Below, piece by piece: positions 53,101 to 53,544 of a stretch of 64,000 nucleotides of DNA. The stretch's first letter is position 1. Each line of letters starts with the position of its first letter. Position numbers: made by a program. The stretch comes from Escherichia coli 042 (GTDB lineage Bacteria; Pseudomonadota; Gammaproteobacteria; Enterobacterales; Enterobacteriaceae). The stretch lies in assembly GCF_000027125.1 (NCBI RefSeq), contig NC_017626.1, one strand, 5' to 3'.

Positions 53101-53544
53101 ACGACGCGAGCAGCTCAATAACGCTGCCAGTTCGTTGAGTGTTGTGTCCTGCGATTTACCCTCGCAGCATTGCCACAGGCGGATGAACTGTTGTTGCAGA
53201 CGAGCAGATGGCATAAAAGGGGAACTCCTGCGCAAAAGACAGCAATTTTATTTTCCCTATATTAAGTCAATAATTCCTAACGATGAAGCAAGGAGGTGCC
53301 CCATGCGTCAGTTTTATCAGCACTATTTTACCGAGACAGCGAAGTTGTGCTGGTTGCGTTGGTTAAGCGTCCCACAACGATTAACCATGCTTGAAGAACT
53401 GATGCAGTGGGAGGGGAGTCATTCTGACTACTGATTTGCGGACATCATGTGTGACTGAGTATTGGTGTTAATCGCCACGCCAGCAGTGATTATCTGCTGG
53501 CTTTTTTCTTTTTGGCGATTGAGTACCGGACGGTGTACAAACTA

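Follow-up and report, generated by a model that had tools for sequence, protein, structure and literature searches.

In Escherichia coli K-12, the sgrR, sgrS/sgrT and setA genes belong to the glucose-phosphate stress response (Vanderpool and Gottesman 2004; Sun and Vanderpool 2011; both as cited in PMC4021124 and PMC4509938). In this strain setA is co-transcribed with sgrS through read-through of the sgrS terminator (PMC4509938), and the SetA protein aids recovery from the stress (PMC4021124). The K-12 RefSeq record has the gene order thiB, TPP riboswitch, sgrR, sgrT, setA (1179 bp, MFS_1) and leuD. Horler and Vanderpool (2009; PMC2760817) presented the synteny of the region for K-12, CFT073 and O157:H7 Sakai, and the legend of their Figure 2 states that setA is marked where present. 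In its passages on the pathogenic strains CFT073 and O157:H7 Sakai, the same source gives 88% identity of their SgrS to K-12 SgrS and describes the sgrT start codon of O157:H7 Sakai as mutated. The presence or absence of setA at this locus is essentially known already and is displayed directly by the RefSeq annotations; as a finding it is correct but ordinary. Here the corresponding locus of E. coli 042 is described and compared with those of other E. coli and other Enterobacteriaceae.

Results

The window analysed here is a stretch of 64,000 nucleotides of E. coli 042 (NC_017626.1), to which the annotation coordinates of the O145 strain RM9872 were carried with an offset of +49199. The sgrR gene (51556-53214, minus strand) is an ORF of 552 aa that is annotated as sgrR in RM9872 and encodes the transcriptional activator of sgrS; its product and the SgrR proteins of other enterics are 85-98% identical in amino-acid sequence. 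A control region of 67 bp, between 53214 on the minus strand and 53282 on the plus strand, separates it from the divergently oriented SgrS. A promoter-like match at 53236-53263 came from the terminator/promoter scan, and no argument is built on it. SgrS (53282-53508, plus strand) matched the Rfam family RF00534 over its full length (model positions 1-232) with 223.3 bits (gathering score 37; E = 2.1e-63), and it is identified as SgrS by this above-threshold full-length score, its divergent orientation relative to sgrR, the conserved pairing region and the Rho-independent terminator. The sgrT gene (53303-53434, plus strand, 43 aa), annotated as such in RM9872, lies within SgrS and is a member of the SgrT family (Pfam PF15894, 46.8 bits against a cut-off of 27). 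Its ATG at 53303 is intact, in contrast to the mutated start reported for O157:H7 Sakai. The base-pairing (seed) region of SgrS, ATGTGTGACTGAGTATTGGTGT (53447-53468, plus strand), is identical to that of K-12. Two further Rfam elements, the leucine operon leader (58267-58416, minus strand, 145.8 bits) and the TPP riboswitch of thiB (50417-50516, minus strand, 65.8 bits), were found at their expected places and are ordinary.

The intrinsic terminator of SgrS occupies 53479-53513 on the plus strand and is composed of a stem-loop (53479-53501) and then TTTTTTCTTTTT. The terminator scan gave a stem of 8 bp with 6 G-C pairs at 53479-53501, after which TTTTTTCTTT comes next, and the terminator was also backed by the RNA fold and by the structure line of the Rfam alignment. 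The leuD ORF (53542-54147, minus strand, 201 aa), likewise annotated in RM9872, has its stop codon at 53542-53544, and 33 bp (53509-53541) lie between the end of SgrS and this codon. A preliminary description of this DNA had noted that the SgrS terminator nearly abuts leuD with no ORF between them; our results agree, and its coordinates were right within 1-2 bases. The only mechanical ORFs that reach into the gap are one of 40 aa (53490-53612, minus strand) and one of 88 aa (53512-53778, plus strand), both of which start with TTG and overlap leuD, and neither had a Pfam match. The terminator is flanked by an inverted repeat, AATCGCC (53471-53477) and GGCGATT (53514-53520), with which either strand can form a longer hairpin; the right arm belongs to the scar described below and is missing from the setA-bearing loci aligned. 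A bidirectional terminator that also serves leuABCD was considered and rejected, since the minus-strand hairpin has no trailing U-run and such a role has no canonical support.

Alignment with K-12 showed that both loci have the divergent sgrR/sgrS pair, a full-length SgrS, the sgrT ORF, the intrinsic terminator, and thiB and leuD as boundary genes. In pairwise BLAST, the homology stops at 53507, in the T-run of the SgrS terminator, and restarts at 53548, so that the 40 bp at 53508-53547 have no K-12 counterpart, while K-12 has 1261 bp including setA at this site. The preliminary description had given the K-12 order as sgrR, sgrS/sgrT, setA, leuD and had named a direct sgrS-leuD junction in K-12 as the result that would prove it wrong; the RefSeq K-12 record has the order given, with setA in that place, and the alignment it had proposed gave this contrast of 40 bp with 1261 bp. 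The 40 bp, which we treat as a deletion scar, extend into the stop codon and the last codon of leuD. LeuD ends in ...FMR followed by TAG in the window, like Citrobacter, whereas K-12 has ...FMN followed by TAA, and the terminator tail reads T6-C-T5 in the window and T8 in K-12. Divergence from K-12 is about 1-2% over the 5' parts of both sgrR and sgrS. It rises abruptly to 15 mismatches per 100 bp at 53356-53455 and 12 in 52 at 53456-53507, the differences starting at the 3' end of sgrT. The C-terminal residues of SgrT in the window (...WEGSHSDY) differ from the K-12 SgrT sequence, and the underlying DNA diverges there in the alignment.

No match to SetA was found in the 64-kb window by tblastn of K-12 SetA (best E = 1.1), and no MFS setA orthologue directly follows the sgrS terminator as it does in the K-12-type sgrS-setA operon. 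The earlier statement that the glucose-phosphate stress locus of this strain is "sgrR-sgrS/sgrT only" is sound for the locus, with setA lacking there and throughout the 64 kb, but it does not extend to every Set-family pump of the cell; the paralogues SetB and SetC, which lie outside the window, may compensate.

A second difference from K-12 lies upstream of sgrR, where an insertion of about 1 kb (50517-51555) between the thiB TPP riboswitch and sgrR carries the T3SS effector gene espY2 (ORF at 50758-51327, plus strand, no Pfam match). K-12 and CFT073 lack the insertion, and O145 RM9872 and IAI39 have it. A chimeric query of espY2 plus setA was covered to at least 80% by 33 E. coli genomes, and in the 32 of these that were listed setA occurs together with espY2 or with a pentapeptide-repeat gene in the place of espY2, which argues that the espY2 and setA indels are independent. 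The 3' third of sgrR (51556-52155) differs from K-12 by 7-19% per 100 bp, compared with 0-6% elsewhere in the gene, and looks like a second recombination tract adjoining the espY2 insertion.

The junction region (53200-53700, 501 bp) is 100% identical in O145 str. RM9872 and 99.4% identical in O157:H7 strains. The direct sgrS-leuD junction was found in 2159 of the 5426 complete E. coli genomes (about 40%), counting genomes that cover at least 80% of the 501-bp query in one place, with 96-100% identity among the matches listed. K-12 setA was found in 3241 of the 5426 (about 60%), 3228 of which match it at no less than 99% identity. The two sets of genomes are complementary and together come close to the 5399 genomes that match at all. 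CFT073 has no setA and shares the 3' SgrS sequence and the filler of the window, and IAI39 has a plain direct sgrS-leuD junction. CFT073 belongs to phylogroup B2, IAI39 to F, the O157/O145 group to E, and K-12 and BL21 to A. The setA-less junction is an ordinary lineage haplotype that is not peculiar to one strain. Neither a recent deletion confined to one strain nor a faulty assembly of its genome would account for anything beyond the difference from K-12, and with the junction in 2159 complete genomes and the same filler in four other Escherichia lineages the probability of either is negligible.

If setA had instead moved to a plasmid or to a different part of the chromosome in this lineage, genomes of the junction type should carry it elsewhere, and three setA matches in the collection are indeed on plasmid-labelled records. 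A chimeric query that joined the window locus to K-12 setA, however, matched 5401 places in 5399 genomes and never more than two in a single genome, so that at most two genomes have a second separate place and, at megablast sensitivity, the junction-type genomes are without setA elsewhere. From this query only the totals were used, as setA-bearing genomes topped the ranking because the chimera mimics their natural gene order. Together with the lack of a SetA match within the 64-kb window, these totals make relocation very improbable.

The exact SgrS seed pattern was used to scan species-representative genomes, which gave 44 loci; E. fergusonii and E. marmotae are not among them. The setA gene directly follows sgrS in 38 of the 44, namely in 37 of the 39 non-Escherichia loci and in Escherichia sp. 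MOD1-EC7003, and the remaining two non-Escherichia loci (L035, L043) end too near sgrS for setA to be scored. The genera with this order are Citrobacter, Salmonella, Klebsiella, Raoultella, Enterobacter, Pluralibacter, Siccibacter and Superficieibacter, with Salmonella represented by Salmonella enterica subsp. arizonae and diarizonae. The direct junction, together with the filler of the window, was present in four Escherichia lineages: E. albertii (L004), E. whittamii (L023), Escherichia sp. E1V33 (L021) and "E. coli SCPM-O-B-8794" (L010). The first three of these have the breakpoints and the filler of the window except for a few substitutions, although their sgrR and leuD show species-level divergence (88-93% nucleotide identity). 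Relative to the window, the filler has a 2-bp gap in three of the four setA-less Escherichia lineages.

The two ends of the scar can be matched to the spacers on either side of setA in Citrobacter. Its left end, ctttttggc, resembles the sgrS-setA spacer of C. amalonaticus, cgttttggctgcgc, and its right end, ccggacggtgtacaaaCTAacg, is similar to atccggcacaacaatgaCTAgcg of C. werkmanii, which comprises the leuD stop and the right arm of the hairpin between setA and leuD. Remnants of both setA-flanking spacers within 40 bp point to an old and precise deletion and, together with the presence of setA in every scorable non-Escherichia locus, indicate that the empty site is derived at the family level. 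On this comparative evidence, the setA-less state is very probably a single old deletion within Escherichia and not an original empty site. The opposite polarity, in which the empty site is original and setA was merely inserted in the K-12 lineage with no deletion, draws on three observations: the sampled non-coli Escherichia other than MOD1-EC7003 lack setA, as do CFT073, IAI39 and the O157/O145 group; setA is nearly uniform among the genomes that bear it (at least 99% identity in 3228 of 3241); and divergence rises steeply on the left flank of the K-12 haplotype. It would leave unexplained why setA is at exactly this position in 37 of the 39 non-Escherichia loci, which are all the scorable ones, and why traces of the two spacers that flank setA, sgrS-setA and setA-leuD, survive in the 40-bp filler, and we regard it as unlikely. 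A re-acquisition of setA in the K-12 lineage, at the level of E. coli, is possible and is compatible with an old deletion in Escherichia.

Discussion

The window very probably represents the common setA-less haplotype that arose from an old deletion of about 1.2 kb in Escherichia, K-12 carrying the alternative, setA-bearing haplotype. The ancestral order in the Enterobacteriaceae would have been sgrR, sgrS/sgrT, setA, leuD. Early in Escherichia, one lineage would have lost setA through a precise deletion of about 1.2 kb that started a few bases beyond the SgrS terminator T-run, ended in the middle of the setA-leuD hairpin and left a scar of 33-40 bp behind. This scar would now be common to E. 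albertii, E. whittamii, other non-coli Escherichia and those E. coli that include CFT073, IAI39 and the O157/O145 group. The alternative haplotype, carried by K-12 and about 60% of the sequenced E. coli, would have its left bound at the sharp divergence jump from the 3' end of sgrT, and it would have been passed between Escherichia lineages by homologous recombination.

The history of the K-12-type haplotype can be approached through its flanks. K-12 setA has 76-80% nucleotide identity to setA of other genera, the corresponding values being 76-80% for sgrR and 81-84% for leuD. The idea that K-12 acquired setA recently from Citrobacter, Salmonella or Enterobacter was rejected, since an identity of just 76-80% is no higher than that of sgrR. 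Exchange within Escherichia is illustrated by the non-coli strain MOD1-EC7003 (L044, 13077-13692), in which sgrR is 92% identical to that of E. coli while the SgrS 3' end is of the K-12 type (100%) and setA is 98.9% identical; compared with K-12, this strain is 4-19% diverged per 100 bp across sgrR and only about 1% from mid-sgrS through setA. This combination of a diverged sgrR with a nearly K-12 SgrS 3' end and setA argues that the setA cassette was exchanged between Escherichia lineages, and the alignments indicate its introgression by homologous recombination. Across the junction, the 3' two-thirds of leuD (53542-53947) differ at 14-33 positions per 400 bp among K-12, O145, CFT073 and IAI39, against 0-3 differences in the 5' 206 bp. 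The diversity of the 3' 400 bp thus defined is put at 5-8%, and the contrast is consistent with an old polymorphism or with repeated recombination at the junction.

The 3' end of SgrS (53469-53501; loci L003-L046) falls into two allelic classes, beginning with TTAATCGCC and AAAATCACCC, and both classes are present within Citrobacter as well as within Escherichia. Their occurrence in both genera suggests an old polymorphism or an intergenus exchange.

K-12 setA is as far from other genera as sgrR is, and the K-12 leuD 3' end is inside E. coli-level diversity; K-12 may thus have retained an old Escherichia haplotype rather than regained setA. A more elaborate history, which we put forward only tentatively and think is probably not the right one, would have Escherichia losing setA early and the lineage of K-12 and about 60% of E. 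coli regaining the cassette by homologous recombination that crossed over within the sgrT 3' end on one side and at the stop codon of leuD on the other, with the cassette still spreading, as in MOD1-EC7003. The textbook sgrS-setA operon would then be derived, and read-through in the setA-less lineages, the majority in Escherichia, would give a stress-induced leuD antisense RNA with a 5' end that pairs the seed with the scar in the predicted fold.

For the setA-less haplotype, the SgrS and SgrT branches of the response described in K-12 should be retained: SgrR should activate an intact SgrS and SgrT, with the ptsG silencing and inhibition of glucose uptake that follow from them. Judging solely by the identity of its seed with that of K-12 SgrS, SgrS of the window would silence ptsG mRNA in an Hfq-dependent manner. 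The arm of the SgrR regulon that consists of the SetA efflux pump appears to be missing at this locus. Because setA is missing in these lineages, K-12 results on the SgrR regulon, i.e., SetA-dependent recovery and setA expression by read-through, are not transferable to O157/O145 EHEC, CFT073-type UPEC and other setA-less Escherichia. The locus serves as an example of an old presence/absence polymorphism with raised flanking diversity, and it opens no new biology. Any transcription past the sgrS terminator here would enter leuD in the antisense direction, and the predicted fold of such an RNA is a long hairpin in which the scar is paired with the seed region (-35.2 kcal/mol, z = -4.85).

The CFT073 locus is likewise of the setA-less haplotype but, unlike the window, carries IS200C in the terminator tail. 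In CFT073 (L047, about 3935-4640), IS200C splits the SgrS tail exactly where TTTTTT meets CTTTTT, corresponding to 53507/53508 of the window, and leaves just six T after the terminator stem.
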